From contig OY970067.1 of assembly GCA_963705305.1 (NCBI GenBank), positions 2,176,001-2,240,000 on the forward strand: a stretch of 64,000 nt of DNA, read 5' to 3'. This DNA is from an uncultured Methylomirabilota bacterium. Its GTDB lineage: Bacteria > Methylomirabilota > Methylomirabilia > Methylomirabilales > 2-02-FULL-66-22. Of the stretch, positions 11,937 to 26,355 are shown in pieces. Both the position numbers and the translations under genes were made by a program. The notes under the pieces were generated by a model. It was not told where the DNA came from and did no database searches. It saw only the letters and a program-made list of their open reading frames with translations. Every line of letters begins with the position of its first letter. Positions within the stretch are counted from its first letter, which is position 1.

Positions 11937-12521
11937 ATGATGCGGTCCACATGCATCGTCGCGCTCCTGTTGCTCTTGGTTCTCCCCTGCACGGCGGCCG
12001 AGTCTCCGTTTCGTACGGGCGTCCTCGAGCCGCCGGCCCCGGCGCCGGACTTCACCCTCCACAGTGACCGGGGCACGACGGTCCGCCTCCACGACTGGCG
12101 AGGCAATGTCGTGCTGCTCTACTTCGGGTACACCTCGTGTCCCGATGTCTGCCCCACCACCCTGGCCGAATTCGCCGAGGTCCGGAAGCAGCTCGGCGCG
12201 GCCGCCCAGCACCTCCGGGTCGCCTTCGTGACCGTCGATCCCGCGCGCGATACCCCGGCGCGGCTTCGCGTATACACCCGCGCCTTCGACGCCACCTTCG
12301 TCGGCCTGACCGGCCCCAAGACCACCCTGGCCAAGGTCTGGAAGGCCTACGGGGTCTATGTGAAGAGCCACCGGGTGCCCGGCTCGTCCGAGGGCTACGT
12401 GGTGGACCATTCGGCCACCACGTTCGTGATCGACGCCAAAGGAGACCTGCGCCTGGCCATCCCGTTCGGGACTCCGGTGGATGACATCTGCCACGACCTT
12501 CAACTCCTATTGCCGAGGTGA
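11937..12521 (+). CDS. SCO1/SenC family copper chaperone
   Basis: FGYTSCPDVCP (CxxxC), VDPARDT, YVVDHS; signal peptide. Confidence 0.93.
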   Translation: MMRSTCIVALLLLLVLPCTAAESPFRTGVLEPPAPAPDFTLHSDRGTTVRLHDWRGNVVLLYFGYTSCPDVCPTTLAEFAEVRKQLGAAAQHLRVAFVTVDPARDTPARLRVYTRAFDATFVGLTGPKTTLAKVWKAYGVYVKSHRVPGSSEGYVVDHSATTFVIDAKGDLRLAIPFGTPVDDICHDLQLLLPR

Positions 12522-12524
12522 CTC

Positions 12525-13001
12525 ATGCGCTTCCCCGTCGTGTGCTCTCTCAGCCTCGCCGTCTGCGTGTTCGGCCTCGCGCCCCTGGCCCGGGGGGCGC
12601 AGATTCCCCGGGCCGCCTCCGTCCGAGTGACTGACGCCTGGGCCCGGCAGGCCCCCATGCTGATGCCCCAGCCGGGCCGGAGGCACGGTGACACCGGCAA
12701 TGGGGCCGTCTACGTGACCCTCCGCAACTTCGTCTCCCACCCGGATGCCCTGCTCCGGGCGACGAGCCCCGCCGCCGAACGGGTGGAGCTGCACGAGACG
12801 CTCCGCGAGGGAGACGTGATGCGGATGCGCCCCGTGGCCAAGCTGGCGGTGCCCGCCGGCGGGGTCCTGGCCATGAAGCCGGGGGGATTTCACATCATGT
12901 TGATCAACCTGAGGCGCCCATTGCATCCGGGGGATCGCATCCCGATCACGCTCACCTTCGCCCATGCGGCCCCCCTATCGCTGGACGTCCCGGTTCGCTG
13001 A
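12525..13001 (+). CDS. PCu(A)C copper chaperone
   Basis: DAWAR, VELHET...MRMRPV, PGGFHIML motifs; signal peptide. Confidence 0.92.
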   Translation: MRFPVVCSLSLAVCVFGLAPLARGAQIPRAASVRVTDAWARQAPMLMPQPGRRHGDTGNGAVYVTLRNFVSHPDALLRATSPAAERVELHETLREGDVMRMRPVAKLAVPAGGVLAMKPGGFHIMLINLRRPLHPGDRIPITLTFAHAAPLSLDVPVR

Positions 13002-13020
13002 CGGGGCGCGGTGTGCACTG

Positions 13021-13524
13021 ATGAGGGTCCGGTGGTTCCCCCTGCTCGGGGGGGTCCTGGTTCTGATCGGTGGCCTGGCGACCGTCGGCTGGCTCGCGCT
13101 GGCACCGGTGGCGCCCCGCCCGCCCGGTGAGCGGGAGCTGGTGTATGTGATCCCGAAGGGAGCAGCCGCCAGGCTGGGCAGCCCCGACCAATACGCCCTG
13201 CCGTCGACCGTTCGCCTCATGATGGGGGTGCGGGACATCCTGGTCCTCCGCAACGACGATGTGGTCCCCATGCAGCTGGGGCCGGTGCGGCTGGCCCCCG
13301 GCCAAACCTACCGCCTTCCCTTCCACCAGCCCGGGGCGCTCCAGCTGGCGTGCTCCTTCCATCAGGGAATCAGCTTCCTCATCCTCATAGACCCCCCGCC
13401 GCCCCCCGGATGGGCGCGACTCTTGTGGCGGCTTGGATGGTCAAACGGATACGGTGCGGAGGACCCGGCCGAAGCATCGCCCGAACCCCAGGGGCTCTTG
13501 TCCTGTGCCGTCTGCTGGGGCTAG
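13021..13524 (+). CDS. Membrane-anchored cupredoxin-like hypothetical protein
   Basis: N-terminal TM, LRNDD, LAPGQTY, LACSFH; co-oriented with sco-pcuAC. Confidence 0.6.
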   Translation: MRVRWFPLLGGVLVLIGGLATVGWLALAPVAPRPPGERELVYVIPKGAAARLGSPDQYALPSTVRLMMGVRDILVLRNDDVVPMQLGPVRLAPGQTYRLPFHQPGALQLACSFHQGISFLILIDPPPPPGWARLLWRLGWSNGYGAEDPAEASPEPQGLLSCAVCWG

Positions 13525-13964
13525 GTGGCGTGCGTCCCCTCGACATCCAGCGGGCGAAGGCGTTCGGCCCCGGCGGCTCGGAGAAGTTGCGCGTCCGCCG
13601 CGGCGAACGTGATGTCCTCATCCAGGGCGCGCTTGAGGCTGAGGGCGGAGGCGAGATGGATGGCGTCGAAAGCCCTCAGGGGGTGGCGCTGAATCAGTTC
13701 GCGGGCCAACACCAGGATCTCATCGCGGAGGTCAATGCGGGTGAAAACCTTCCATTCCTCTTCGAACCGACGCACTGCGAGGGCGTATTGGACCCGGGAG
13801 AGATCCCCGGCCCGCTGCTTCCGGGTGAGAACACCGTATGTTTCCGCGTAGGCGATCTTCGCGGTTGCCACCCTCGCCTCGCTGGTCAGGAGCGAATAGA
13901 CGAGGGGAGATCCCGGCTCGACAAGAAAGCGTTTGATCAGCGCGCTCGTGTCGAAGTAGATCAC
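13521..13964 (-). CDS. vapC: VapC PIN-domain toxin
   Basis: YFDTSALIKRF, LRAFDAIHLASA, AAD acidic PIN motifs. Confidence 0.9.
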   Translation of the reverse strand: MIYFDTSALIKRFLVEPGSPLVYSLLTSEARVATAKIAYAETYGVLTRKQRAGDLSRVQYALAVRRFEEEWKVFTRIDLRDEILVLARELIQRHPLRAFDAIHLASALSLKRALDEDITFAAADAQLLRAAGAERLRPLDVEGTHAT

Positions 13965-14239
13965 CGCCGGTCCTCCAGGATCATCTGGGAGGCGAGCGGA
14001 CCTTTGGCACGGATCGGACGGAACCGCGAAGCCTTTCGGGTCGGGAGGGTCAACAAGCCTTGGGCGGCGAGCTGGGCCAGCTGGGCCTCCTGGCTCCTGA
14101 CCTGCCTGGCCGATTCGATCGGCTGGAGCAGGGCGATGGGCTTCCCCCGGTCAGTGACAATCACCTCTTCCCCCCGCATCGCTCGCCGAAGGTAATGCGT
14201 GAGGCGGTTCTTCAACTCCCTGACACCGACGCTGCTCAT
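13961..14239 (-). CDS. Phd/YefM antitoxin
   Basis: VGVRELKNRLTHYL...GEEVIVTDRGKPIA; 4-nt overlap with the toxin gene. Confidence 0.9.
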   Translation of the reverse strand: MSSVGVRELKNRLTHYLRRAMRGEEVIVTDRGKPIALLQPIESARQVRSQEAQLAQLAAQGLLTLPTRKASRFRPIRAKGPLASQMILEDRR

Positions 14240-14253
14240 AGCCTGCTCCTTTC

Positions 14254-14288
14254 AGTAGCTATTGTAGCTACTTCAGATGGGAAGTCAA
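14254..14288 (-). promoter_or_regulatory. Toxin-antitoxin promoter with autoregulatory palindrome
   Basis: Minus-strand TTGACT-N16-TACAAT; perfect AGTAGCTA-TTG-TAGCTACT (14254-14272) centred on the -10. Confidence 0.75.
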
Positions 14289-14433
14289 TGAGAGGGCGGA
14301 AGGCGATTCAGTTCATGGAGAGGGAGGCCTTGCGCCGGTCCCCGCCGGCAGAATCCGCTTGACGCAGGCGAGCGATCCCGCCAAAGTTACGGTGTCGTGC
14401 CGTAGCAGGCGGCCGCACTGGAGGAGCAACGCC

Positions 14434-15801
14434 ATGGCGACGCTGAGAGAGCTGGAACCGCGGGCACAGGAGATCCTGGCGCGCGAGCAACGTGTCTATG
14501 AACAGAGCAATCCGCGATCGAAAGAGGCCTACCAGCGATCGCGCCGGGTGCTCCCCGGCGGTGTCTCCCGCGGCCTGTGCTTCTTCCCGCCGTTCCCGTG
14601 CCAGACGGCCTCCGGCGAGGGCTGCTGGATGGTGGATATCGACAGCAACCGCCGCCTGGACCTCTTCAACTGCGCCACGACCCTCATCCTCGGTTACCGG
14701 CCTCCGGCCGTCGTGAAGGCGGTGGAGGAACAGCTCGGCCGCGGCACTGCCTTCCAGACCAACAGCGGGCTCGAGACGATCCTGGCCGAAATGCTGGTGG
14801 ACCGGGTGGCCTCGCTCGAGCAGGTCCGCTTCACGAACAGTGGGAGCGAGGGGACCCAGATGGCCATCCGGGCCGCCCGGGCTTTCACCGGACGCTCGGC
14901 GATCGCCAAGATGGAAGGCGGCTACCACGGCTCGCACGATTCGGTGGAGGTCAGCGTCCGTCCGCCCGCCGATGCGTCCGGTCCCGCCAAGACCCCTCGG
15001 GCGGTGGCCGATTCCGCCGGGATCCCGGCCGAGGCCCTGGAGCACGTCGTGATCCTCCCCTACAACGACCTGGAGGCGGCCCGTGCCATCCTCGATCGGG
15101 AGGCCGCCCGGCTCGCCGCCGTCATCGTCGAGCCGATCTTGGGGAGCGTCGGCTTCATCCCCGGCGAGCCGGAGTTCCTTCGGGGCCTGCGGGCGGAGGC
15201 GGAGCGGCACGGCATCCTCTTCATCCTGGACGAGGTGCAGAGCTTCCGGCTGGATCGAGGCGGCGCTCAGAAGCTCTTCGGCCTCAGGCCGGATCTCACC
15301 TGTCTCGGCAAGATCATCGGGGGCGGCTTCCCGGTGGGGGCCTTCGGCGGGCGGAGGGACATCCTGGCGCTGTTCGATACGGCCTCCGGGCCGGCCCGGA
15401 TCCCCCACCACGGAACCCTCAATGCCAACCCCATCACGATGACCGCCGGCATCGCGACGCTCGAACAGCTGACGGAGCCGGTCTATGCCCGCCTCAACGG
15501 GACGGGGGATCGCCTGCGGCGGGAGCTGCGCGAACTGGGGGAGCGCTTCGGGGCGCCCATGCAGATCACCGGGATCGGCTCCATGTGGAAGATCCACTTC
15601 AGCGAGAGCCCGGTGTGGGACTATCGGTCCACCCTCCGGGCCAGCGGCCTCATCCACCGGGCTCTCTTCCTCTTCGGCTTGAATCGCGGGCTGTTCATCT
15701 CGGAGGGCGGGCGCTGCTGCCTCTCGGTCCCCATAGGAGATGCCGAGGTGGACCGGTACCTGGCGGCTGTCGAGGGGTTCCTGGCGGAGCTGACCCGCTG
15801 A
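14434..15801 (+). CDS. Class III PLP aminotransferase (GSA aminomutase-like)
   Basis: LPGG, FTNSGSEG, GGYHGSHD, FILDEV, LGKIIGGGFPVGA, GTLNANP; SD GGAGGAG. Confidence 0.88.
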   Translation: MATLRELEPRAQEILAREQRVYEQSNPRSKEAYQRSRRVLPGGVSRGLCFFPPFPCQTASGEGCWMVDIDSNRRLDLFNCATTLILGYRPPAVVKAVEEQLGRGTAFQTNSGLETILAEMLVDRVASLEQVRFTNSGSEGTQMAIRAARAFTGRSAIAKMEGGYHGSHDSVEVSVRPPADASGPAKTPRAVADSAGIPAEALEHVVILPYNDLEAARAILDREAARLAAVIVEPILGSVGFIPGEPEFLRGLRAEAERHGILFILDEVQSFRLDRGGAQKLFGLRPDLTCLGKIIGGGFPVGAFGGRRDILALFDTASGPARIPHHGTLNANPITMTAGIATLEQLTEPVYARLNGTGDRLRRELRELGERFGAPMQITGIGSMWKIHFSESPVWDYRSTLRASGLIHRALFLFGLNRGLFISEGGRCCLSVPIGDAEVDRYLAAVEGFLAELTR

Positions 15802-15903
15802 GCGTCCGGAGCGGATTCCGCCGCACCGCCAATGAAATGCCCTCCGGGTATCGTACCCGCCGCCGCTCCATCTGCCGGGTCTCGGATCTTCCGGAGTCCT
15901 TGC

Positions 15904-15921
15904 GGTCGGAATGTCGGACAA
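15904..15921. promoter_or_regulatory. Possible GntR/FadR-family operator upstream of glcD
   Basis: TGTC-G-GACA palindrome preceded by a GTCGGA repeat; short, so it may be chance. Confidence 0.35.
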
Positions 15922-16078
15922 TCAGCCGCACCAGAGCCGATTCTGTTCAGGGTTGGAAGGGCCGAGTTGTAAGATTAGAATGATCTGGACGCGGCCCCGA
16001 GATCGGGGCCGGCCTGCACCCGTTGCGCGGCCCGGGGCAGAACCCTGAGTCCGCCGCCTCGTGGTTGAAGGGAGAATC

Positions 16079-17467
16079 ATGGCCATTGCGAGTCGTACCC
16101 TGGCGTCGGATCTCCGCCGGCTGGTCCCGGCCGGGCAGGTGCTCGACTCGATCGAGGATCGCACGCTGTACGCCTACGACGGGACCAGCACGAAGGCGCT
16201 GCCCGACATCATCGTGATGGCGCACACGACGCAGGAGGTCTCCACGCTCCTCAAGTTCGCCTCGGATCGGGCGGTGCCGGTCGTCCCGCGGGGGGCGGGG
16301 ACGGGCCTGTCCGGAGGCTCCGTTCCCGCGGAGGGAGGAATCGCCCTGGTGCTGGCAGGCATGCGGGCCATCAAGGAGCTGGACAAGGACAGCATGGTGG
16401 CCGTGGTCGAGCCGGGGCTGGTGACGGGACAGTTCCAGAAGGCGGTCGAGGCGGCCGGCATGTTCTATCCGCCGGATCCCGCCAGCCTGAACTACTGCAC
16501 CCTCGGCGGCAACGTGGCCGAGAACGCCGGCGGTCCGCACGGGGTGAAGTACGGGGTCACCAAGGACTACGTCCTGGGGCTGGAGGTGGTCCTGCCGTCC
16601 GGTGACATCGTGCGCCTGGGGGGCCGGCAGATCAAGAACGTGACCGGCTACAATCTGGTCCAGTTCTTTGTGGGCTCGGAGGGGACGCTGGGGGTGATCA
16701 CCGAGATCATCCTGCGCCTGCTGCCCAAGCCGCCGGCCAAGCGGACCATGCTGGCCGTCTTCGATCGGCTGGACGACGCGGCCACGGCGGTGGCGGGGAT
16801 CATGTCGGGGGGCGTGATCCCGGCGACCCTGGAGATCATGGACCAGATGAGCATCAACTGCGTCGAGGACTACCTGAAGCTGGGGCTCCCGCGGGATGCC
16901 GAGGCCATCCTCCTGATCGAGGTGGACGGCATGCCGGCGGCCGTCGAGGCGGAGGCCGACCTCATCGGCCGGATCTGCCGCGAGAAGGGAACCCGCAGCT
17001 TCCAGGTCGCCAAGGACAAGAAAGAAGAGGACGACCTCTGGAAGGCGCGCCGGTCCATCTCACCGGCCATCTCGGCCGCCCGCCCCAGCAAGATCGGTGA
17101 GGACATCAGCGTGCCGCGCCGGGCCATCCCCGAGATGGTGCGCGAGATCCAGCGCATCTCCCGGGAGTACTCGCTGCCCATCGTCATTTTCGGCCATGCC
17201 GGCGACGGAAACCTGCACCCCAATATCCTGACCGACCGGCGCGATCACCAGGAAATGGAGCGGGTCGAACGGGCCATCGGCGCCATCTTCGAGGCGTCCG
17301 TGCGCCTGGGGGGCACCCTGTCCGGGGAGCACGGCATTGGTCTCAGCAAGAAGCCGTTCCTGGGGCTGGCGCTCAGCCCGGAGACGGTCAAGCTGATGGC
17401 GGACCTCAAGCGCGCGGTCGACCCGAAGAATATCCTGAACCCCGGCAAGATCTGGGGAAGAGCGTAG
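16079..17467 (+). CDS. glcD: FAD-linked oxidase, glycolate/D-lactate dehydrogenase GlcD-like
   Basis: PRGAGTGLSGG, YPPDPAS, ENAGG, GSEGTLG, GHAGDGNLH, SGEHGIG, LNPGK. Confidence 0.9.
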   Translation: MAIASRTLASDLRRLVPAGQVLDSIEDRTLYAYDGTSTKALPDIIVMAHTTQEVSTLLKFASDRAVPVVPRGAGTGLSGGSVPAEGGIALVLAGMRAIKELDKDSMVAVVEPGLVTGQFQKAVEAAGMFYPPDPASLNYCTLGGNVAENAGGPHGVKYGVTKDYVLGLEVVLPSGDIVRLGGRQIKNVTGYNLVQFFVGSEGTLGVITEIILRLLPKPPAKRTMLAVFDRLDDAATAVAGIMSGGVIPATLEIMDQMSINCVEDYLKLGLPRDAEAILLIEVDGMPAAVEAEADLIGRICREKGTRSFQVAKDKKEEDDLWKARRSISPAISAARPSKIGEDISVPRRAIPEMVREIQRISREYSLPIVIFGHAGDGNLHPNILTDRRDHQEMERVERAIGAIFEASVRLGGTLSGEHGIGLSKKPFLGLALSPETVKLMADLKRAVDPKNILNPGKIWGRA

Positions 17468-17468
17468 C

Positions 17469-18785
17469 ATGCAGATCCGGGACGTCTCCTCCCTGTTCAA
17501 GTGCAACAAGTGCGGCTCTTGCACGTCGGTGTGTCCGCTGTACCAGCAGACCGTCCTCGAGGGAATGGCCGCCCGAGGCAAGCTGGCCTTGCTGGAAGCG
17601 GCGGTGGACGGGCGGCTGGAGGCGACCAAGGCCGTGCGCGCAAAGCTGGAGGAATGCCTGCTGTGCGGCGCCTGCGCGCAGAACTGCCCGAGCCTGGTTC
17701 CCACCACCGAGCTGTTCCTGGAAGCCCGCGCCGCCCTGGCGGGGGATTTGGGAATCCCGCTGCCGATTCGCCTGTTCCTGACCGCGCTGGCCACGCCCGG
17801 CCTCATGCGCGCCGGCATGCCGGGGATGCGCCTGCTCCAGCGCTCCGGCGTGCTTCAGGTGGCGGAAACGCGGGCGGGCCTCCTCCTGCCGGAATCGGTG
17901 CGGGCCGCGGTGCGGGCCGCGCCCCCCATCCCGTCCCCGCCGTTTCTGGCACGCCGGCTGGCGTTCGCCGGCAACGGGAAGGGGGAGCGGGGGACCGTCG
18001 CCTACTTCGCGGGCTGCTTCATGAACTGGGGCTACGCCGATGCCGCCGAGGCGACCCATCTGGCCCTCAACCTGGCCGGCTATCGGGTGGAGTCCCCGCC
18101 GGTGGTCTGCTGTGGACTGCCGCACCGCGTGTACGGCGATCTGGAGCGGGCTCGCCGCCTGGCGCGCCAGAATATCCAGACCCTGGAGAAGTACGAAGCG
18201 ATTGTCGCCGACTGCGCCTCGTGCGGGGCGGCGCTCAAGGAGTATGGCGAGGTGCTGGCGGACGATGCGGAGTATCGGGCTCGCGCCCGCGCGCTTTCCG
18301 ACCGGGTCTTCGACGTGTCGGCATTCCTGGTGGCGCAGGAATTCCTCCGGCCGGAGGGCGAGCTGCCGATCCGGGTGACCTACCACGAGCCATGTCATCT
18401 CGGGCGGGTGCAGGGCGTCAAGCAGCAGCCGCGGCAGATCCTGCGGGCCATCCCGGGCGTGGAGTTCGTGGAGATGAAGGACGCCAACGTCTGCTGCGGC
18501 GGGGCCGGATCCTTCTGCGTGCTCCATTCCGAGCTGTCGGAGAAGGTGGGGGCGGCCAAGGTGGAGAATATCCTGGCCACCGGGGCCGAGGTGGTGGTGA
18601 GCGGGTGTCCCTCGTGCATCTCCCAGCTCGCCGCCATGCTGCGGGCCCGCGGATCCGGCATCCGCGTCTGCCATCCCATGGAGCTTCTGGCGGAAAGCTA
18701 CCGGCGCTCCCGCGTCCCTGGCACCACGGCCGTCGAAGAGGAAACGTCATCTTCCCAGCCGGTCGAGGGACGAAAGGCCGGGTGA
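17469..18785 (+). CDS. glcF: Fe-S subunit GlcF-like (2x[4Fe-4S] plus two CCG domains)
   Basis: CNKCGSCTSVCP, CLLCGACAQNCP, VCCG, YHEPCH, CCGGAG, GCPSC. Confidence 0.88.
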   Translation: MQIRDVSSLFKCNKCGSCTSVCPLYQQTVLEGMAARGKLALLEAAVDGRLEATKAVRAKLEECLLCGACAQNCPSLVPTTELFLEARAALAGDLGIPLPIRLFLTALATPGLMRAGMPGMRLLQRSGVLQVAETRAGLLLPESVRAAVRAAPPIPSPPFLARRLAFAGNGKGERGTVAYFAGCFMNWGYADAAEATHLALNLAGYRVESPPVVCCGLPHRVYGDLERARRLARQNIQTLEKYEAIVADCASCGAALKEYGEVLADDAEYRARARALSDRVFDVSAFLVAQEFLRPEGELPIRVTYHEPCHLGRVQGVKQQPRQILRAIPGVEFVEMKDANVCCGGAGSFCVLHSELSEKVGAAKVENILATGAEVVVSGCPSCISQLAAMLRARGSGIRVCHPMELLAESYRRSRVPGTTAVEEETSSSQPVEGRKAG

Positions 18786-18892
18786 CCCGGCCGCAGGGCG
18801 TAGAGGAAGTGCGCTTTCGCGTTGGTATTCTCCGATCCCTCCGCTCGCGATGGCGTGCCCGGCCTTCTCCTCGTCAGGGCTAGACCCTCCAC

Positions 18893-19273
18893 TCAATAGC
18901 AGAGCGTGGCTTTTGCCTCCAGGCACTCCTGGACCAGCCGTGCCGCCGCGATCGGCTCGGCGCCATCCATCAACGCCTCTACCCCGATCCGGCGCTCCTT
19001 GATGCATGGCGAGCAGACCAGAAGCTGCCCGCCCTGCTTCACGAAGCTGTCCATCAGGTCCTTGAGCGGGGGAAGGCCGCCGGCAAAGACATGCTCGTTC
19101 GTCCCGTTCACGGCCAGATAGACCCCGTTCCCCTGGAGGGCCACGACTGCCTTCACGTCCATCACCAGGGCGCCGTTTCCCACAACGAAGGGCAGCGTGG
19201 CCCGCTCGGGATCCTCCGGTCCGTGGGTTGCGACGATCACCATCTTCTCGGCCTTGACCTCTTCGGCTGGCAT
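18893..19273 (-). CDS. DsrE-family sulfur-transfer/peroxiredoxin-like protein
   Basis: THGPEDPERATLPF, LQGNGV, VCSPC; SD GGAGGGAG. Confidence 0.82.
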   Translation of the reverse strand: MPAEEVKAEKMVIVATHGPEDPERATLPFVVGNGALVMDVKAVVALQGNGVYLAVNGTNEHVFAGGLPPLKDLMDSFVKQGGQLLVCSPCIKERRIGVEALMDGAEPIAAARLVQECLEAKATLCY

Positions 19274-19362
19274 TTCTCCCTCCATCATCGAATTGTCATT
19301 GGACTACCAGACCTGTCGTTCGCCTGCGAAGGTTGCTCCGCTGGCTATCTTCGGTGAGCACG

Positions 19363-19920
19363 TCAAATGAAAAGCGTCGCTTTGCTGGAGCCGGCTTCGG
19401 CCAGGAACGTGGCCACGCCAGCCGCCTTCATGTTCGGGTACTCTATCATCTCCTCCATCTTGTACCCCATGAGGTCCATGCTCATCTGGCAGACATAGAT
19501 CTGCACGCCAGAATCAGCCGCGGTCTGGATGAGCTGCCCCAGACTCATGACATGCTGCTTCTTCATGAGCCACTTTATCATTGCTTTCCCCGCCCCGGCC
19601 ATGTTCATCCTGGAGAGGGAAAGGGCCGCCGCCCCCTTGGGGAGCATGTTCTCGAACATCCTGCCGATGAGGGACTTGGCGACCCTCTTCTTCGGGTCCT
19701 TCAGGGCCGGTATGGCCCAGAAGGTAAAGAACATGGACACCTTCTCGTACATGACCGCCGCGCCTGTGGCTATGATGAAAGCGGCCAGGAGCTTGTCCAG
19801 GTCTCCGCTCATCACCACCATGGAGAGCTTGTCCTGGGGCAGATTGGCCTGGAGCGTCTCCACTTCTTTCTTGAGCCGTTCAACGGTTTCATTCAGTTTT
19901 TGTATCTCAACGGTATCCAT
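19363..19920 (-). CDS. DsrE2-family (DsrE/F/H-like) protein
   Basis: SGDLDK, AFIIATGAA, MFFTFW, VCQMSMDLMG, GVATFL. Confidence 0.88.
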   Translation of the reverse strand: MDTVEIQKLNETVERLKKEVETLQANLPQDKLSMVVMSGDLDKLLAAFIIATGAAVMYEKVSMFFTFWAIPALKDPKKRVAKSLIGRMFENMLPKGAAALSLSRMNMAGAGKAMIKWLMKKQHVMSLGQLIQTAADSGVQIYVCQMSMDLMGYKMEEMIEYPNMKAAGVATFLAEAGSSKATLFI

Positions 19921-20043
19921 ATTTTCTGTTCATCCCTGCCAAAGGCATTGGTCTCATTCGGCGTCCGACCGTTGCAAACGTCCTCCGGGCCGCCCCCGGA
20001 ATCCCCTCTTTTCACCACCCGGCGTCTCTTTTCACGAGCCGGT

Positions 20044-21228
20044 TTATGCACTGGCCGCCCGCAGGCGCCAAAACTCCGTGAACCAGATGGCGGCCGGACG
20101 GTAGAGGATGTGGGCGAATTTGGTAAAGGGCAGGAGCAGGATCAGCTCCATGGCCAGGGCGATGTGGACGAGGAAGATGACCCCCATGGCGACCCCCGCC
20201 CCGCCGGCCAGCGGAACGTAGTCGGCCAGCTCGAGGATGAAGCCCGTGATGCCGATGGGCCAGAGGAACCCCAGGAAGAGCCAATCCGAGAGGCCCGTGT
20301 GCGCATAGTACTTGTCGGGCTTGCGCAGACGCTGCAGGATGGCCACCGTCGTCCCGTAGACGAAGAAGGCCCCGGCCACGGTGCCCAGCAGTCGGATCGG
20401 ATACCAGATCGGCACATAGGATCCGGGCGTCTTGAACAGGTAGTCGAGGACCGTGGCGAGACCCAGCCCGGCCATGCCCATCATGATGGAGTAATGCACG
20501 AACCAGCGGCGGAGGAGGAGCGGCCCGGGGGGCTGGGTCTTCTCCGAGTCGCAGTCGCGGTAGCGGCGCTGTCCGACGACCTCGGCCATGGTCGTCTTGA
20601 GCGCGATCAACGCCGCCCCCAGGGGAAACAGGCCCGGCCGCACCTCCGGCAAGCCCAGGCCGCCGGGAGAGGCCGCCCGCGAGATCATCCAGAACATGTT
20701 GAGCAGTGTGGCGGCGGTCATCGCCGCGACGGCGACCATCACACCAATGCCGAGCCAGTGGATGGTCTCGTACGGCACGAACGTGAGCAGGGCGCTCGCG
20801 TCGGCCGGGCCCGGCGGAAGCCCGGGCGAGCGCGCGAGCAGGATCGCGAGCAGGCCCGCAAAGACAATCGCGAGCAGGCCCGCGGCCAACCCCTTCGACC
20901 GGTACAGGCGCCCCGCGATCGAGGTCGGGTCAAAGCGCGCGATGGCGTAGCGCCGGGCGGAGGCCATGAACTCGCCGGGCTCGGCTTGGCGGGGGCAGGT
21001 GTCGGAGCACTCGGCACAGTAGTCGCACAGCCAGAGCTCGCGGCTCGCCGCGATGTGGTCCTTCTGCCCGAGCTGGGCATAACGAATCACGCGACGCGGG
21101 AAGGCGACGTATTCCTTGGACAGCGGGCAGACCGCCGTACAGTTCCCGCAATTGAAACAGGCGTCGATGTCGAAGGCGCCGAACCGCTTCATGTCTTTCA
21201 GCACGCTGGTATCGACACGCATGGCCAT
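20044..21228 (-). CDS. QmoC-like protein: 2x[4Fe-4S] domain plus cytochrome b-type membrane domain
   Basis: CFNCGNCTAVCP and LWLCDYCAECSDTCP; about six TM helices with four His (TIHW, FVHY, LVHI, PFTKFAH). Confidence 0.82.
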   Translation of the reverse strand: MAMRVDTSVLKDMKRFGAFDIDACFNCGNCTAVCPLSKEYVAFPRRVIRYAQLGQKDHIAASRELWLCDYCAECSDTCPRQAEPGEFMASARRYAIARFDPTSIAGRLYRSKGLAAGLLAIVFAGLLAILLARSPGLPPGPADASALLTFVPYETIHWLGIGVMVAVAAMTAATLLNMFWMISRAASPGGLGLPEVRPGLFPLGAALIALKTTMAEVVGQRRYRDCDSEKTQPPGPLLLRRWFVHYSIMMGMAGLGLATVLDYLFKTPGSYVPIWYPIRLLGTVAGAFFVYGTTVAILQRLRKPDKYYAHTGLSDWLFLGFLWPIGITGFILELADYVPLAGGAGVAMGVIFLVHIALAMELILLLPFTKFAHILYRPAAIWFTEFWRLRAASA

Positions 21229-21231
21229 CGG

Positions 21232-21543
21232 CTAGTCTCCCTTGCCTTTCTCCTGCACGAGCCGGTAGGTAAAATACTCGCCGTCCTGGGCGTCCTCCGC
21301 CAGCTCGCCGTACTTGCGCATGGCCGCCACATGCCAGAGCACCTCGCGCGCGGTGAGGCCGCAGGCCCCGGCCAGGGTCGGCACGGTCGCCGGTCCCTTG
21401 GCCAACTCGGCCCGGATCTTGCGCCGCGCGGCAGCCCGCTGCTTGTTCTGCTGGGTCGCGGTCTCCAGGATCCCCGCGCGTTCGGCGCGCAGCCTTTTCA
21501 GCGTGTCTTTCAACGCCTGTTTCTGCTCGCTCGTCTGAGTCAT
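21232..21543 (-). CDS. Small winged-helix protein within the hdr operon
   Basis: GPATVPTLAGACGLTAREVLWHVAAMRKYG wHTH pattern; ATGA overlap with the upstream hdrA. Confidence 0.75.
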   Translation of the reverse strand: MTQTSEQKQALKDTLKRLRAERAGILETATQQNKQRAAARRKIRAELAKGPATVPTLAGACGLTAREVLWHVAAMRKYGELAEDAQDGEYFTYRLVQEKGKGD

Positions 21544-23480
21544 CTCGCCAGTGCCTCCGAGCCGACAAGGAGGGCATCGACCATGGCATCGTACTGGTCG
21601 AGCGTCCAGCCGGCGAGGTCGATGGCGCGGACCGGGCAGACCGCCACGCACGCGCCGCACCCCGAGCAGAGGGCGGGATTCACGACGGCGCGGGAGCGGC
21701 CGTCGGGATACTCGTGGAGGGCGATGGCGCCGGTGTAGGGGCATTCCTGCACACACAGGCCGTGGCCCTCACAGCGCCCGGCCTCGACGTGGGCCACGAA
21801 CGGGTCGAGCTCGACGTGTCCCCTGGAGAGCAGGGCCATCGCCTTGGCTGCCGCGGCGGAGGCCGAGGCGGTCGTTTCGGTCACATCCTTGGGCCCCTGG
21901 CTGGTGCCGGCCACCAGCACGCCGCCGACGGCGAGCTCGACCGGACGCAGCTTGGGATGGACCTCGAGCAGAAAACGGTCGGTGCCCACCGGCAGCTTGA
22001 GGCTGCCGACCAGCGACGACACGTCGGCCGGCTTCATGCCGACCGCAAGCACCAGCAGGTCGACAGCGGCCTCGACCTCCTCGCCCCAGGTGAGTCCGTC
22101 CTTGCAGCGGACGATCACGGGGCTCGCCTCGCCCGCTGGCGCCTTGGTGACGCTGGGGGGGGATTGAGCGCTCCAGCGCACGAAGACGGTGTCGCTCTTG
22201 GACGCTTTCTCGTAGTAGTCCTCGTGGCCGCGGCCGTAGGTACGGATGTCCTGGTAGAAGTCGAACGTCGCCACATCCGGCCGCTTCTCGTGCAGATCGC
22301 AGATGGCCTGCAGCGTGGCGGTGCAGCACACGCGCGAGCAGTATTCGTTGATCTTGCCGTCGGCCTGCGGCTTGTTCACGCCCTCGGCCTGGCGGCTGCC
22401 CACACAGTGCATGAAGGCGACGCTGCCGATCGGGCGGCCGTCCCGCTCCGGCAGGCCCGCGCCGGCAGTGACGCCGCTCAGCCACTTGATGAAGTCGGGC
22501 AGCGTGATGACCTGCGGGATGCGGCCGTAGCCGTACTCGCCCTTGCCGGGGACGTAGTGCTCGAAACCGGTGGCGACGACGATCGCCCCGGCCTCGAGGG
22601 TGAGGACGCGGCCGCCGGGGGCCTCAGCGGGGGCGCCTCCAGCCGCCGCAGCCTGGGCGCCGGAGGCGGCGCCGTCGAGCGCGTACCCCTCGAACGGACG
22701 GAAGCCGCCCGGAGCCCGGCCGTGACGACGGGCGGCGGCGTCCACCACCTTCCCGTCGGATTCCTGCCTCACCGAGAGCGTGAAGTTGCCCACATACCCC
22801 TCGGCCCGTTCGACCACGGCGCGCGTGTAGACCGTCACGCGGGGATCGGCCAGGACCTCTTCGGCCAGCCGCGTCAGGACGTCGGCCGCGGGCTCTTCGT
22901 TGGGAAACAGGCGGTCGAGGACCGCCACGTTGCCTCCGAGGACGGCCTTGCGCTCGAGCAGCGCGACCTGGATGCCGGCGCGCGCCAGGTCGCGGGCCGC
23001 GCGCAGGCCCGCCACCCCGCCGCCGATGACGGCGGCTCTGGCCGTTGTCTCCACACGGATGGGCTCGAGGGCGGAGAGGCGCGACGCCTTGGCGACCGCG
23101 GCGGCCACCAGGGAGGCCGCCTTGGCCGTGGCCTGCCCGGGGTCGCCGGTCGCCCAGCTCACCTGCTCGCGGATGTTCACGTGCTCGTAGAGGTAGGGGT
23201 TGAGTCCGGCCCGCCCGAGCACACCGCGGAAGGTGGTCTCGTGCAGCTTCGGCGAGCACGCCGCCACGACGACACGGTCGAGATGCTCGTTCTGAATGTC
23301 CTGCACGATCGCGTTCTGCCCCGGGTCGGAGCACATGAACACGTTCATGCGGGCCACCACGACGTTGGGCAGCGCCGCCGCCCGGTCGGCCAGTTGCTGG
23401 ACATCGACCACGTCGGAGATGTTGCCCCCGCAATGGCAGATGTAGACGCCGATGCGCGGCGTGGACTGCTGGGCCGTCAT
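21540..23480 (-). CDS. hdrA: HdrA/Qmo-like flavoprotein (N-terminal Fe-S domain, FAD domain, C-terminal ferredoxin)
   Basis: GVYICHCG, ACSP, NIREQ, IGGGVAG, HCVGSR, CSRVCC, DIRTYG, GPKD, CSGCGACVAVCP. Confidence 0.88.
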   Translation of the reverse strand: MTAQQSTPRIGVYICHCGGNISDVVDVQQLADRAAALPNVVVARMNVFMCSDPGQNAIVQDIQNEHLDRVVVAACSPKLHETTFRGVLGRAGLNPYLYEHVNIREQVSWATGDPGQATAKAASLVAAAVAKASRLSALEPIRVETTARAAVIGGGVAGLRAARDLARAGIQVALLERKAVLGGNVAVLDRLFPNEEPAADVLTRLAEEVLADPRVTVYTRAVVERAEGYVGNFTLSVRQESDGKVVDAAARRHGRAPGGFRPFEGYALDGAASGAQAAAAGGAPAEAPGGRVLTLEAGAIVVATGFEHYVPGKGEYGYGRIPQVITLPDFIKWLSGVTAGAGLPERDGRPIGSVAFMHCVGSRQAEGVNKPQADGKINEYCSRVCCTATLQAICDLHEKRPDVATFDFYQDIRTYGRGHEDYYEKASKSDTVFVRWSAQSPPSVTKAPAGEASPVIVRCKDGLTWGEEVEAAVDLLVLAVGMKPADVSSLVGSLKLPVGTDRFLLEVHPKLRPVELAVGGVLVAGTSQGPKDVTETTASASAAAAKAMALLSRGHVELDPFVAHVEAGRCEGHGLCVQECPYTGAIALHEYPDGRSRAVVNPALCSGCGACVAVCPVRAIDLAGWTLDQYDAMVDALLVGSEALAR

Positions 23481-24832
23481 GCCGGTACCTCGGCCGCGCT
23501 TCGCGCCTCGGCGGCGCCTGCGGGGTGGGCCCCAGCCGCTCGCCCGCCGAAACCGTGCGCGCGCAGATAGAGACTCGCCTCGGCGGCGGCCGCCCCCGCC
23601 TCCACAATGGCGTCAACGATGTCCTTGGGACCGGTCGCCGTGCCGGCGACGAAGATGCCGTCGACGCCGCTGCGGCAGGGCGCGTCTTTGGGGTGCGGCA
23701 CGCTCACGAAGCCGTCGCTGCCGGTCTCCAGGGCAAGCAGGCGGGAGAGGTCGACGGCGGGCCGCAGGCCCAGCGAGAGCACGACCAGGTCGTGCGCGCG
23801 CTCCTCGACCTGGCCGAATTGATCGATCCGCTCGACGCGGACGGTCACGCCCTGGTCCGCATTCTCCGACAGGCGCGCCACCTTGCCCTTGACGAACTCG
23901 ATGCCCATGGCCTGCGCCGAGCGGTAGAACTCCTCGTATCCCTTGCCGAAGGCGCGGATGTCCATGTAATAGATGGTGATGTCGGCGAAGGGCAGCGCGC
24001 CGCTTAAAAGCATCGCCTGCTTGATCGCGTACATGCAGCAGACGCGCGAGCAGTACGGCACGCCCAGGGTATGGTCGCGCGAGCCGGCGCACTGCACGTA
24101 GGCCACCGACTGGGGGACCTTGCCGTCCGACGGCCGCAGCACCCGGCCGTAGGGGCCGTGCGGCGCCAGCAGCCGCTCCATCTGCGTCGGGGCGAGCACG
24201 TTTGCGATCTGGCCGCCGCGGTACTCGGCCTTGGCCTCGAGGGGAGTGAGCTGCCAGCCCGTGGCAGCAACCACGGCGCCGGCTTCGAGCTCGAAATCCT
24301 GGGGCTGCTGGTCGAGCACGATGGCGCCGGTCGGGCAGGCCGCCACGCAGCGCCCGCACAGGATGCAGTGATCGGGATCGATCAGGGCGGTCTGCGGAAT
24401 GGCGTTGGTGAAGGGGATGTAGGCCGCCCGCCGCGCCCCCATGCGCCCCTCGAACTCGTCCTCGACCTCCACCGAGCAGGCGTACTCGCACAGCCGGCAG
24501 CCGATGCAGTCCGCCTCGTTCACGTAGCGGGGTTTCTTGCGCAGGGCGGCCTTGAATACGCCCCCCTCGCGCCGCACCGAGCGGAGCTCGATATAGGTAT
24601 AGGTGGCGATGTTGGGATGGTGAGCCACGGCCGCCATCTTGGGCGTGGTGATGCAGCTGGCGCAGTCCAGCGTCGGGAAGACCTTGCTCAGGCCGATCAT
24701 GGCCCCGCCGATGCTCGGGTTGCGCTCGACGACCGCCACCGAGAAGCCCTGGTCGGCCAGGTCGAGAGCGGTCTGCAAGCCCGCGATGCCAGCGCCGATG
24801 ACGAGGGCGTCGAACCTGGAATCCTTGCTCAT
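23477..24832 (-). CDS. hdrA: HdrA/Qmo-like flavoprotein (FAD domain with inserted ferredoxin)
   Basis: IGAGIAG, KVFPTLDCASC, CIGCRLCEYAC, CILCGRCVAACP, QCAGSRD, YCSRVCCMYAIK, DIRAFGK, GPKDI. Confidence 0.9.
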   Translation of the reverse strand: MSKDSRFDALVIGAGIAGLQTALDLADQGFSVAVVERNPSIGGAMIGLSKVFPTLDCASCITTPKMAAVAHHPNIATYTYIELRSVRREGGVFKAALRKKPRYVNEADCIGCRLCEYACSVEVEDEFEGRMGARRAAYIPFTNAIPQTALIDPDHCILCGRCVAACPTGAIVLDQQPQDFELEAGAVVAATGWQLTPLEAKAEYRGGQIANVLAPTQMERLLAPHGPYGRVLRPSDGKVPQSVAYVQCAGSRDHTLGVPYCSRVCCMYAIKQAMLLSGALPFADITIYYMDIRAFGKGYEEFYRSAQAMGIEFVKGKVARLSENADQGVTVRVERIDQFGQVEERAHDLVVLSLGLRPAVDLSRLLALETGSDGFVSVPHPKDAPCRSGVDGIFVAGTATGPKDIVDAIVEAGAAAAEASLYLRAHGFGGRAAGAHPAGAAEARSAAEVPA

Positions 24833-25245
24833 GCAGCGACCTCCCGGGCCCCGGCCAGCACGGCGTTCAATTCGTCGATCTCCTTGAGGAACGGCTTGGT
24901 GCAGACCGTGCAGATGGCGCTCAGGCGCAGCCGTTCGGGCGCGATGCCGCGCTCCTTGAGGCCGAGCTTGACCCGGTCGATGCGGGCGGCGAGTTTTTCG
25001 AACGCTCCGACATAGGGGCACTCGTGCCCGCATGACATCACGAGGATGCCGCCCACGCCCTTGGCAAAGCAGCGGTAGTAGAATTCGTCGGGAAAGAGCA
25101 CCGGCGAGGGCACCCGCAGGATGAAGGTGTTGGGGGCGTAGTGGAGATGGGCCTGTCCCGTGGCGTCGGCGGCCGGGTAGGCGCAGGTCGCGGTCGCGAG
25201 AATCAGGATCCTGGCCTGATCCCGCACAGTCGTATGCTCACTCAC
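24829..25245 (-). CDS. mvhD: MvhD/FlpD-like iron-sulfur subunit, variant
   Basis: CAYPAAD, ILRVP, GGILVMSCGHECPY, GIAPERLRL, overall MvhD layout. Confidence 0.8.
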   Translation of the reverse strand: MSEHTTVRDQARILILATATCAYPAADATGQAHLHYAPNTFILRVPSPVLFPDEFYYRCFAKGVGGILVMSCGHECPYVGAFEKLAARIDRVKLGLKERGIAPERLRLSAICTVCTKPFLKEIDELNAVLAGAREVAA

Positions 25246-25333
25246 GGAAGAACTCCTGTGGGACGAACCAATGCGCCCCCGCGCCCCCTATGACACCCAG
25301 GGGGGCACGCAGGCCATCCAAACACTTCACCGG

Positions 25334-25591
25334 CTACTTGCCTCGCCGCACGAAGATCCGGTCGTAGCCCTCGGCCGCCCGGAGGGCGCCCAGGAATTCG
25401 TGGCCGACCTTCTTGGCCCATATGGGGATGTCGTTGCGCGAACCGGCATCGCCGGAGCGGATCTCGACGACCCCGCCCACGCTCACCGTGCCCATGCCCT
25501 TTTTGGCTTCGAGCAGGGGGCCAGGGCAGGCGCTGCCGCGGGCATCCACAACATGATCGGGGGTGATGTCTTCGAGCTCCTCAACGTCCAT
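25334..25591 (-). CDS. tusA: TusA-family sulfur carrier
   Basis: VDARGSACPGP, DIPIWAKKVGHE; SD AAGGAG. Confidence 0.9.
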   Translation of the reverse strand: MDVEELEDITPDHVVDARGSACPGPLLEAKKGMGTVSVGGVVEIRSGDAGSRNDIPIWAKKVGHEFLGALRAAEGYDRIFVRRGK

Positions 25592-25777
25592 GTCTGGCTC
25601 CTTTCATGGCGCATGGTTGTCGGCGCGCCCCGGGTGTGAAATACAATCCAAACCCGCAATCCCGGCATCCGGGAGTCCCGGGGCACGGCATCTGGTTTGA
25701 TTCGTACGAAAGGCTGTTGGAGCGCTCCGAAAAGCGTGCGGCGAGCTTCCGGACCTCGGCGGGCGTGCCCGGGGCGT

Positions 25778-26251
25778 TCAGCGCGCTCCGTCAGCCAGGC
25801 GCGATTCCTGGAGGTGCTCTGGTTCGAGGGCCGCTCGAGCGGGAGCGGGCCGAGCAGTCTCCTCGGACGTGCTTGCGCCGTCGAGGAACCTGGCTGCGAG
25901 GAGCGACATCCCTGCGGCCCGATGTTGCTCGACGAGCGCCTTCCGAATCAGCCGGCATCCCTCAATGAACGTCGGATTGGTGATCGAGTAGTAGACGGAT
26001 TGCCCCTCCTTCCGTGGACGGACCAGCATCCGCTCTTTCAGCACGCGCAGGTGCTGCGAGAGGGTGTACACCGGAACCTGGAGCATACGGGCCAAGTCGC
26101 TGACGCACATCTCTCCTTGCGCCAGGTGGTACATGATCGCAAGGCGATGCTCGTTGGCGAGGGCCTTGCAGAACTCGGCCTGCATCCGAAAGACCGTTTG
26201 TAATTCTTCGCGTGACGGAGTATTTGACTCATCATGTATTTGCATATACAT
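25778..26251 (-). CDS. ArsR/SmtB family transcriptional regulator
   Basis: FCKALANEHRLAIM, LSQHLRVL, RKEGQSVYYS; start uncertain (26251 or 26245). Confidence 0.88.
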   Translation of the reverse strand: MYMQIHDESNTPSREELQTVFRMQAEFCKALANEHRLAIMYHLAQGEMCVSDLARMLQVPVYTLSQHLRVLKERMLVRPRKEGQSVYYSITNPTFIEGCRLIRKALVEQHRAAGMSLLAARFLDGASTSEETARPAPARAALEPEHLQESRLADGAR

Positions 26252-26261
26252 ACAAATACAT
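26234..26261. promoter_or_regulatory. AT-rich inverted repeat, candidate ArsR operator
   Basis: ATGTATTTGCAT-ATAC-ATACAAATACAT (arms match 11/12), overlapping the arsR start. Confidence 0.6.
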
Positions 26262-26355
26262 TATTATATCTGTAGTGTCAAGCGGGATTCTTTCTCTTTA
26301 TGGGCTCACCGAGCAGAATTCCGCAGATTCATGCGATCTCGACAGATGAAGAGCC

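Follow-up and report, generated by a model that had tools for sequence, protein, structure and literature searches.

Which redox partner serves a Qmo/Hdr-type flavoprotein complex whose genes lie among sulfur carriers, with neither an adenosine 5'-phosphosulfate (APS) reductase nor a hydrogenase among them? The question is raised by an operon in a 64,000-nucleotide stretch of DNA from an uncultured Methylomirabilota bacterium (positions 2,176,001 to 2,240,000 of contig OY970067.1, assembly GCA_963705305.1; hereafter the window). Nine co-oriented genes, claimed in a sequence-only reading of the window, were all found by open reading frame (ORF) calls, Pfam and NCBIfam. They lie head to tail on the minus strand at 18893–26251 (2.195–2.202 Mb of the genome) and encode, in order, an ArsR regulator, TusA, an MvhD-fold protein, two HdrA-type flavoproteins (A1 and A2), a small winged-helix protein (wHTH), a QmoC-like membrane subunit, DsrE2 and DsrE. 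Our preferred answer, to which we give a probability of about 0.5, is that the nine genes specify a membrane-anchored electron-transfer complex of the Qmo/Hdr type working with TusA-borne sulfane sulfur, handled via DsrE and DsrE2, rather than with APS reductase or a hydrogenase. The operon would then probably link carrier-bound sulfur to the membrane quinone pool.

The most unusual part is the MvhD-fold protein (138 aa, 24829–25245; FlpD E 1.1e-18), which carries a C-terminal CxxC motif (C112, C115). Its AlphaFold2 (AF2) model (predicted local distance difference test score, pLDDT, 87) superimposes on MvhD chains 8rvu_F, 5odc_D and 7bkb_F with a Foldseek template-modeling score of 0.84 and a root-mean-square deviation of 1.4 Å. 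The model places the CxxC between a strand (106–110) and a helix (116–137), an arrangement in which redox-active CxxC pairs are usually found. Next, we compared cysteine positions between sulfur- and hydrogenase-linked copies, taking as the five canonical MvhD cysteines the positions shared by four hydrogenase-linked MvhDs (one in locus L086, the upstream copy in L091, and two in this genome). All four have 5/5 canonical cysteines, and Ser/Glu at the positions of window residues 112 and 115. By contrast, all 65 TusA-linked MvhD-fold proteins have Cys at both 112 and 115 and keep few of the canonical ligands: none in 6 sequences, one in 2, two in 34 and three in 23. In some of them, the CxxC pair represents the sole two cysteines. 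The window protein itself keeps 3/5 canonical cysteines among a total of six (C21, C59, C72, C76, C112 and C115), and the CxxC is absent from two canonical QmoB C-terminal domains. Since the pair stays invariant while the former ligands are lost, the alignment argues for selection on the CxxC.

The presumed partner of this motif is similarly constrained. TusA (85 aa, 25334–25591; PF01206 E 1.1e-16, 60.9 bits vs a gathering score of 28.6) has a single cysteine, Cys22, within an invariant CPGP motif. Cys22 was kept in 65/65 sequences, and 26 of the 85 alignment columns are invariant across 31 sequences from several phyla. TusA also has the highest median identity of the cluster proteins (66% vs 43–64% for the others). 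The DsrE2-family carrier (185 aa, 19363–19920; PF13686 E 2e-45) has a single cysteine, Cys144, that was kept in 18/18 sequences; it scored 60.9 bits on the NF047629 equivalog model, below the cut-off of 210, and passed only the Pfam DrsE_2 family (155 bits). The DsrE-family carrier (131 aa, 18893–19288; PF02635 E 3.7e-13) has a C92-S-P-C95 motif, in which Cys92 was kept in 43/43 sequences and Cys95 in 86%. Each of the three carriers is single-copy in the genome (tblastn, 1e-4).

The four remaining enzyme genes form a Qmo-like core. A1 (451 aa, 23477–24832) occupies the QmoA position and A2 (646 aa, 21540–23480) the QmoB position; they scored 481 and 517.9 bits, respectively, on the NCBIfam HdrA2 model. 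A1 spans positions 141–560 of this 777-position model and consists of a thioredoxin-reductase-like flavin adenine dinucleotide (FAD) core with an inserted 2x[4Fe-4S] ferredoxin domain (Fer4, residues 108–171), lacking both the N-terminal domain and the C-terminal ferredoxin domain. A2 matches the HdrA2 model in two stretches, the best at positions 1–233, and has its second stretch on the HdrA model at 323–652. It comprises an N-terminal Cys-cluster domain, a FAD core and a C-terminal 2x[4Fe-4S] ferredoxin, with an Ala/Gly-rich linker in place of the inserted ferredoxin domain and no fused MvhD domain. The best solved relatives of A2 are HdrA of 8rvu and 5odc (E 1e-123). Because the domains missing in each flavoprotein are covered by the other, A1 and A2 are, judging from their domain make-up, complementary halves of an HdrA dimer. 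Fourteen cysteines of A1 are invariant in 34/34 sequences and 12 of these are shared by all comparators. Of the other two, C57 is replaced by Pro in both sequences of canonical QmoA, and C159 is Asp in the hydrogenase (Mvh)-linked A1 and Ser in bona fide HdrA. The QmoC-like subunit (394 aa, 20044–21228; Fer4_9 and Nitrate_red_gam matches) combines an HdrC-like 2x[4Fe-4S] domain with a cytochrome-b-like membrane domain of seven hydrophobic segments. Two CX2CX2CX3C motifs (C24/27/30/34 and C68/71/74/78) and four histidines (H157/245/355/373) are invariant in 21 sequences.

Between A2 and the QmoC-like gene lies the wHTH gene (103 aa, 21232–21543), whose product belongs to no Pfam family and has only a sub-threshold HTH_20 match. 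Its AF2 model (pLDDT 92) shows a helical hairpin and a winged helix, for which the matches are generic winged-helix proteins (best E 4e-4). It has no conserved cysteine, and the conserved aromatic residues sit in the wing. A profile of the family matched 302 clusters at E ≤ 1e-10, nearly all of them stand-alone proteins of ~100 aa. In the operon the gene is translationally coupled to both A2 and QmoC. That coupling inside the enzyme genes, its presence in the Mvh-linked paralogue (see below) and the conserved wing aromatics make a DNA-binding regulator the less favored reading of this protein, although we keep it as a candidate.

To what extent is the association of carriers and core conserved? 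Of 8000 candidates scored against the QmoC-like protein, 903 were database relatives at E ≤ 1e-3. A scan of species-representative genomes gave at least 559 confirmed QmoC relatives; the analysis used the best 80 loci, which are the nearest relatives rather than a random sample. The nine window proteins were compared with these 80 loci by tblastn, and counts were restricted to the 60 whose sequence extends 6.5 kb or more upstream of QmoC. A1, A2 and the MvhD-fold protein were each present in 60/60 loci and TusA in 59/60. The wHTH protein was counted in 59 loci, 54 of them through tblastn and 5 through clustering of ORFs, and DsrE or DsrE2 in 48 by tblastn, with a clustered DsrE-family gene in a further 8 (56 in all); ArsR was found in 35/60. 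In 8 of the 12 loci without a DsrE match, a 121-aa DsrE-family gene lies directly downstream of QmoC (one was Pfam-scanned, the rest assigned by blastp clustering). The gap between TusA and MvhD is at most 150 nt in 57/62 loci. Going by the titles of the metagenome-assembled genome (MAG) records, the loci come from about a dozen phyla, with labels including Thermoleophilia, Acidobacteriota, Planctomycetota, Chloroflexota, Myxococcota, Ignavibacteriota, Bacteroidota, Latescibacterota, Dormibacterota, Bacillota and Actinomycetales. The gene order thus recurs in many phyla, with tusA beside nearly every homologous cluster.

Two forms of the cassette were apparent. Thirty-six loci are window-like, and in the other 24 a GltD/NfnB-like NAD(P)H module (Fer4_20 + Pyr_redox_2) is inserted in A1. 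The NAD(P)H-module form (e.g. L044:5018-8020) is common in MAGs labelled Chloroflexota, Actinomycetales, Dormibacterota and Bacillota. Three loci labelled Thermoleophilia (L022 at 12934-20291, L024 and L026, minus strand) hold two convergent cassettes; in the second, a divergent one, an HdrC-CCG fusion (CCG E 7e-11) replaces QmoC; these cassettes retain TusA, the CxxC MvhD-fold protein and wHTH. Other genes were seen near the cassette in subsets of loci: rhodanese genes in 10 (e.g. L058:2957-3433), TauE/SafE-family genes in 7 (e.g. L032:16077-16919), and a PadR and hemerythrin pair after QmoC in 15 Chloroflexota-type loci. A lead to a lipoate-binding protein (LbpA) in L029, a downstream GCV_H domain, was rejected, as it is the C-terminal part of a response regulator and occurs in that locus only.

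Within the window's own phylum the cassette is rare. QmoC matches at E ≤ 1e-60 occurred in 3 of 251 genomes, all of the same genus and including the window's genome; any match was found in only 2 of the 20 other genomes of the genus. One of these (G069) carries a TusA-type cassette that is only 45–59% identical, and the other (G065) is of the Mvh type. The nearest relatives are 73–84% identical and are labelled as other phyla, including Actinomycetota and Acidobacteriota, and the QmoC tree mixes phyla. Given the few matches in the genus, the nearest relatives in other phyla and the mixed tree, horizontal transfer of the cassette is the simplest reading.

The host genome (a single 5.65-Mb contig, 98.9% complete) contains a natural point of comparison. 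A paralogous locus (L100, 4529937–4544956) encodes A2 (686 aa), MvhD, MvhG, MvhA, A1 (442 aa), wHTH and a QmoC-like protein, and continues directly into HdrC, HdrB, HdrA, MvhD, MvhG and MvhA, with HypB upstream. HdrB, HdrC, full-length HdrA and two MvhG/MvhA sets thus all lie at 4.53–4.545 Mb, and the HdrB-like gene at 4.539 Mb, which stands with HdrC, HdrA and Mvh, is the sole one in the genome. The paralogue has the same core cofactor motifs as the operon and no TusA or DsrE; its wHTH protein is 34% identical to that of the operon. Its A1 falls inside the TusA-linked A1 clade, and its A2 at an unresolved fork within the A2 clade. Locus L086 has the same Mvh-type order, again with no TusA. 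In a Planctomycetales-labelled MAG (L091:242-4237), the two partner modules stand in tandem: an A2-MvhD-MvhG-MvhA block comes first and is followed directly by a complete ArsR-DsrE-TusA-MvhD-A1-A2-wHTH-QmoC cassette. Collectively, these gene arrangements indicate that one core (A1, A2, wHTH and the QmoC-like subunit) occurs with two kinds of partner: a hydrogenase plus a normal MvhD in one case, TusA/DsrE plus an MvhD-fold protein bearing the CxxC in the other.

We then considered whether the core belongs to APS reductase or to a Dsr pathway. The sequence-only reading pointed to aprAB, sat, dsrAB, hdrB and mvhAG elsewhere in the genome as informative. No aprA was found above the cut-off (best 45 bits) and no match to sat (TIGR00339) in the genome; dsrAB is present away from the operon, as are the hdrB and mvhAG genes described above. 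The dsrA and dsrB genes lie at 2.563–2.566 Mb, within a dsr locus (L101, 2549620–2567512) that encodes a DsrL-like protein (GltD-type), DsrA, DsrB, a DsrN-like protein, DsrC, an unassigned 191-aa ORF, DsrM, DsrK, DsrO and DsrP, and ends in a pair of DsrK/HmcF-like and TmcC/HmcE-like genes. Because this locus is present without aprA or sat, the host is, by its gene content, a sulfite- or sulfur-compound-dependent Dsr organism and not a sulfate reducer. Other candidates in the genome led elsewhere: three GCV_H matches (1.21, 3.33 and 3.84 Mb) are not near the operon; CCG genes at 1.02 Mb, considered as a possible sulfur-oxidizing Hdr (sHdr) system, were rejected as LutB/GlcDEF-type lactate or glycolate genes; and a third qmoC-like match, with an adjoining 464-aa ORF, scores as TcuB.

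The same independence was seen across genomes. The operon has the domain content of canonical Qmo (two HdrA-like flavoproteins, and a QmoC with two FeS motifs and four haem-ligand histidines), but its QmoC-like subunit reached 185.9 bits on NF038018 (qmoC), below the cut-off of 300, vs 369–397 bits for apr-adjacent copies elsewhere. Among 50 cluster-bearing genomes, aprA was above the cut-off in 7 and dsrA in 11, leaving 39 without dsrA. A separate qmoC above the cut-off was present in 4/5 aprA-positive genomes, the copy on the aprA contig lying 4–5 kb from aprA, and the TusA-linked QmoC in aprA-positive genomes scored 182–201 bits. In a quick maximum-likelihood tree of QmoC (37 non-canonical rows in total), the 5 canonical rows split from 36 TusA-linked rows on a branch of 2.16 (Shimodaira–Hasegawa-like approximate likelihood ratio test, SH-aLRT, 98). 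The HdrA tree places canonical QmoA together with QmoB in a clade (support 99) that is separate from those of A1 (100) and A2 (100); both trees are quick ones with few canonical rows. The subunits therefore fall outside the canonical QmoA/B/C groups, and, by these scores and trees, the complex is not an Apr or Dsr accessory. The view of the sequence-only reading that a Qmo-like set sits here on sulfur carriers as something other than a characterized system has thus held up: the subunits group apart from the canonical clades, aprA and sat are missing from the genome and tusA is conserved.

How might such a complex work? We infer that the subunits assemble into a complex coupled to quinone, that TusA docks on it and that the CxxC is redox-active; the substrate and the direction of flow are part of the same proposal. 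Menaquinol/menaquinone would exchange at the di-haem QmoC-like subunit, which would pass electrons to its two [4Fe-4S] clusters and from there to the A1/A2 HdrA pseudo-dimer, with two FAD and several FeS clusters. It is at this pseudo-dimer that flavin-based electron confurcation or bifurcation involving ferredoxin would most likely take place. From A1/A2, electrons would reach the MvhD-fold protein, whose CxxC, in place of the usual [2Fe-2S] ligand set, might serve as the point of thiol-disulfide exchange with the Cys22-persulfide of TusA, while DsrE and DsrE2 would load or unload Cys22. On this model, persulfide or polysulfide sulfur on the carriers would be reduced to H2S, either to dispose of sulfane sulfur or as a low-level sulfur respiration, with the ArsR repressor in control. 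Reduction of sulfane sulfur to sulfide is our best guess for the net direction, and the reverse is possible; we lean to reduction because thiol-disulfide chemistry of this kind is typically reductive, because the variant A1 brings in an NAD(P)H module and because, for the genes examined, known pathways of sulfur oxidation or sulfate reduction are missing from most hosts. A sulfur theme among the neighbours also speaks for the proposal, with rhodanese and TauE/SafE genes near related cassettes and SqrR as the nearest solved protein to the ArsR. The sequence-only reading had likewise claimed a quinone-linked oxidation or reduction of persulfide on TusA/DsrE; of this, the Qmo-like set and the carriers are borne out, and the persulfide chemistry stands as a proposal.

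Several observations weigh against this proposal. None of the nine genes encodes the catalytic subunit of any known sulfur-redox enzyme, be it HdrB/CCG, DsrAB or a Psr/Phs molybdoenzyme. No cysteine of A1 or A2 is specific to the TusA-linked form, as nearly every conserved one recurs in Mvh-linked paralogues or bona fide HdrA. The window's MvhD-fold protein, with its six cysteines, could possibly use the CxxC to ligate a cluster. Moreover, the link between CxxC and TusA is a clade-level trait shared by descent, and thus reflects one or a few events and not 65. Because TusA and the CxxC persist where HdrC-CCG replaces QmoC, the gene content of those cassettes implies that a quinone link is not essential to TusA's role. 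MAG incompleteness softens the absence counts for aprA and dsrA. A persulfide-sensing ArsR would suit the proposal, yet a Tyr aligns at the first sensing position of its nearest solved relative (see below), so that sensing of this kind is no more than possible. Counting neither for nor against the proposal, a complex prediction of TusA with A1, the MvhD-fold protein and wHTH scored 0.21 against a mark of 0.32.

The same complex might also run in the opposite direction, with sulfide or carrier sulfane sulfur as the donor and the flavins splitting electrons to menaquinone and ferredoxin (or NAD(P)+ in the NAD(P)H-module form). We regard this as unlikely but as a serious rival, and several features would fit it. 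TusA and the CxxC protein beside MvhD hold the gene position that MvhG/MvhA hold in the paralogue, and TusA is kept when the HdrC-CCG acceptor module replaces QmoC, as expected for the donor side. The midpoint of the S0/HS– couple is about midway between those of menaquinone and ferredoxin, but the thermodynamic margin would be very small. A bifurcation of electrons from H2 to menaquinone and ferredoxin has been put forward for an Mvh-Qmo-Hdr cluster, as far as the consulted parts of the preprint go (bioRxiv 10.1101/2023.09.08.556235). Against donation by sulfide, the operon has no known sulfide-activation site such as an SQR/FCSD-type Cys pair at the flavin, and many hosts carry the labels of fermentative or heterotrophic lineages, with no further markers of sulfur oxidation (sqr, sox and pdo were not searched).

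A bolder version, which we hold to be decidedly unlikely, sees the TusA/DsrE relay and the CxxC protein as a replacement for the hydrogenase. The sulfur couple would then act as the mid-potential bifurcation couple, reducing menaquinone and ferredoxin together, or the reverse, in an HdrB-free counterpart of Mvh-Hdr/Mvh-Qmo-Hdr that has spread horizontally among bacteria of many phyla in soil and sediment. If true, a sulfur couple at the bifurcating position would represent a new substrate class for flavin-based electron bifurcation, and would bear on the long-open role of the second Qmo flavoprotein.

Alternatively, the carrier substrate might be an oxidized adduct or a mixed protein disulfide or trisulfide (TusA-S-SO3– or TusA-S-S(n)-DsrE), making the complex a thiosulfonate or protein-heterodisulfide reductase. 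In its favor, the trisulfide of DsrC is the substrate of DsrMK, and three different single- or double-Cys carriers are conserved here. The TauE/SafE "sulfite exporter" family genes of the related loci noted above would also fit, but they occur in a minority of loci only. Further, the QmoC-type operon has no CCG or noncubane-cluster site, and our results do not discriminate between adducts. On balance, this identity of the substrate seems quite improbable to us, even though DsrE3A and TusA of Metallosphaera are reported to carry thiosulfonate (PMC4175335).

It is equally improbable, in our judgment, that the carriers are not substrates at all, TusA/DsrE instead supplying sulfur for cofactor or cluster building or acting as regulators, while the complex would have an unrelated soluble partner, for instance in ferredoxin:menaquinone or NAD(P)H:menaquinone transfer. 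Such a role would agree with the lack of a sulfur-catalytic subunit, with the pairing of the core with another partner in the Mvh-linked paralogue, and with a variant A1 that has its own NAD(P)H module. However, since the paralogue has the core cofactor motifs without TusA or DsrE, the carriers are presumably not needed for maturation; TusA is, in addition, more conserved than the enzyme subunits, and the CxxC change tracks TusA. Finally, an ordinary QmoABC that serves an APS reductase or the Dsr pathway elsewhere is largely refuted and hardly credible, as the overall domain content and the presence of dsrAB, dsrC and dsrMKOP at 2.55–2.57 Mb are outweighed by the missing aprA and sat, the sub-cut-off QmoC, the separate clades, the canonical copies that co-exist beside aprBA in other genomes and the 39/50 hosts without dsrA.

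Returning to the operon, its layout is compact. Internal ATG codons are the true starts of A1 and of the wHTH protein. Three junctions (MvhD/A1, A1/A2 and A2/wHTH) are ATGA overlaps, the wHTH stop lies 3 nt from the QmoC start, and most starts are preceded by Shine-Dalgarno-like motifs. A scan for promoters and terminators inside the operon gave nothing above chance. Among sequencing runs, none of RNA was listed as containing the operon, and metagenome runs showed it in small DNA shares only. The first gene (25778–26251) encodes an ArsR/SmtB-family regulator of 157 aa (HTH_5 E 3.6e-12; NF033788 87.5 bits, above the cut-off of 55). An AT-rich inverted repeat across its start (26231–26264; arms of 15 nt, 87% complementary, spacer of 4 nt) is a candidate operator; it is located in the arsR/marR divergent intergenic region, and a promoter-like hexamer pair overlaps it. 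The closest solved relative of this ArsR is the sulfide-responsive repressor SqrR (E 1.9e-12), whose sensing pair is Cys41 and Cys107. The Tyr noted above aligns at the Cys41 position, and the alignment stops before Cys107. The protein's own cysteines are C28, C49 and C99, of which C28 was kept in 82% and C99 in 91% of 11 close orthologues; on the BigR model it scored 46.3 bits vs a cut-off of 155.

The flanks appear unrelated to the operon. Upstream are a divergent MarR gene, a methyltransferase-GNAT protein and a SufBD-like protein; downstream is a convergent pair of GlcD-like and GlcF/LdhH-like genes. The sequence-only reading had stated that the window holds no aprAB, hdrB or lbpA. This stands for the operon, whose nine genes contain no CCG domain, but needs correction for its surroundings, as a CCG (HdrB/D-type) gene adjoins it: a plus-strand, convergent gene (17469–18785) that scores LdhH/GlcF-like and is paired with a GlcD-like FAD oxidase (16061–17467). 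The pair (16061–18785; GlcD-like FAD oxidase and 2xCCG FeS protein) resembles a lactate/glycolate-type dehydrogenase, and it was not among the gene families common to at least 6 related loci. Elsewhere in the window, we noted a PIN-domain toxin and Phd/YefM antitoxin pair (13521–14239), a Sco1/SenC gene adjoining a PCu(A)C copper chaperone gene (11937–13001), and an Omp85-superfamily protein with DUF5982 (39885–41330), which suggests an outer membrane; the operon's nearest relatives are nevertheless in MAGs with Actinomycetota and Acidobacteriota labels, as would fit horizontal acquisition.

Qmo/HdrA-type modules are known with APS reductase, heterodisulfide reductase and hydrogenases; here, such a module seems to be wired to TusA/DsrE in bacteria mostly without Apr or Dsr. 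This points to an unrecognized route by which sulfane sulfur in the cytoplasm is connected with the quinones of respiration, and possibly also with ferredoxin, in soil, peat and sediment bacteria. The Mvh-linked paralogue provides a natural control within the same genome, and the CxxC and TusA Cys22 offer a concrete and cheap test.

How does the operon compare with known systems? Our literature search, whose scope did not extend to subscription-only reviews, returned no description of a TusA-linked Qmo/HdrA/QmoC cluster. With canonical type I QmoABC, for which confurcation with a third partner has been proposed (in the sections consulted of Ramos et al., 2012, PMC3333476), the operon shares two HdrA-related flavoproteins, an MvhD-type domain, an HdrC-like/di-haem QmoC and a presumed menaquinone link. 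It differs in that it is not beside aprBA, in a genome without aprA and sat. Further, canonical QmoB has a fused C-terminal MvhD-like domain, whereas A2 ends with a ferredoxin and MvhD is a separate upstream gene; the extra wHTH subunit, the CxxC in MvhD and the co-encoded TusA, DsrE and DsrE2 also set the operon apart. Type II QmoAB are closer to typical HdrA than to bacterial type I QmoAB (Neukirchen et al., 2023, PMC10504309). A placement with type II would fit the operon's best NCBIfam models, HdrA2/HdrA, and its separation from type I in trees whose sequences include no named type II row (Ammonifex, Vulcanisaeta), but is no more than possible; the consulted passages and one supplementary table of that paper make no mention of a TusA linkage of type II Qmo.

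The sulfur-carrier side invites comparison with the sHdr-LbpA system, in which sulfur oxidation involves a TusA/DsrE/rhodanese relay (Tanabe et al., 2024, PMC11094781, in the parts consulted). Both encode TusA and DsrE-family carriers with an Hdr-type FeS flavoprotein system, but the operon has no HdrB1, HdrB2, HdrC or lipoate-binding protein in or beside it, and a membrane QmoC instead. The description of the operon as a hybrid of Qmo and sHdr, given by the sequence-only reading, is therefore not upheld: it has no HdrB/CCG subunit and no adjacent lipoate-binding protein, and its nearest core relative is of the Mvh-Qmo-Hdr type. Compared with methanogen MvhAGD-HdrABC (PDB 5odc, 8rvu), to which A1, A2 and the MvhD-fold protein are clear homologues, the operon is without HdrB and hydrogenase, its HdrA is split in two and its MvhD ligand set is partly lost. 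The closest match is with the Mvh-Qmo-Hdr cluster of Ca. Methanoglobus, which the available part of the preprint describes as MvhAGD with two HdrA and QmoC (bioRxiv 10.1101/2023.09.08.556235), and which the paralogue in this genome matches in type. The two-HdrA and QmoC-like core is the same; its partner there is MvhAGD with a fully liganded MvhD, whereas the operon has TusA, DsrE and a CxxC MvhD-fold protein in place of a hydrogenase.

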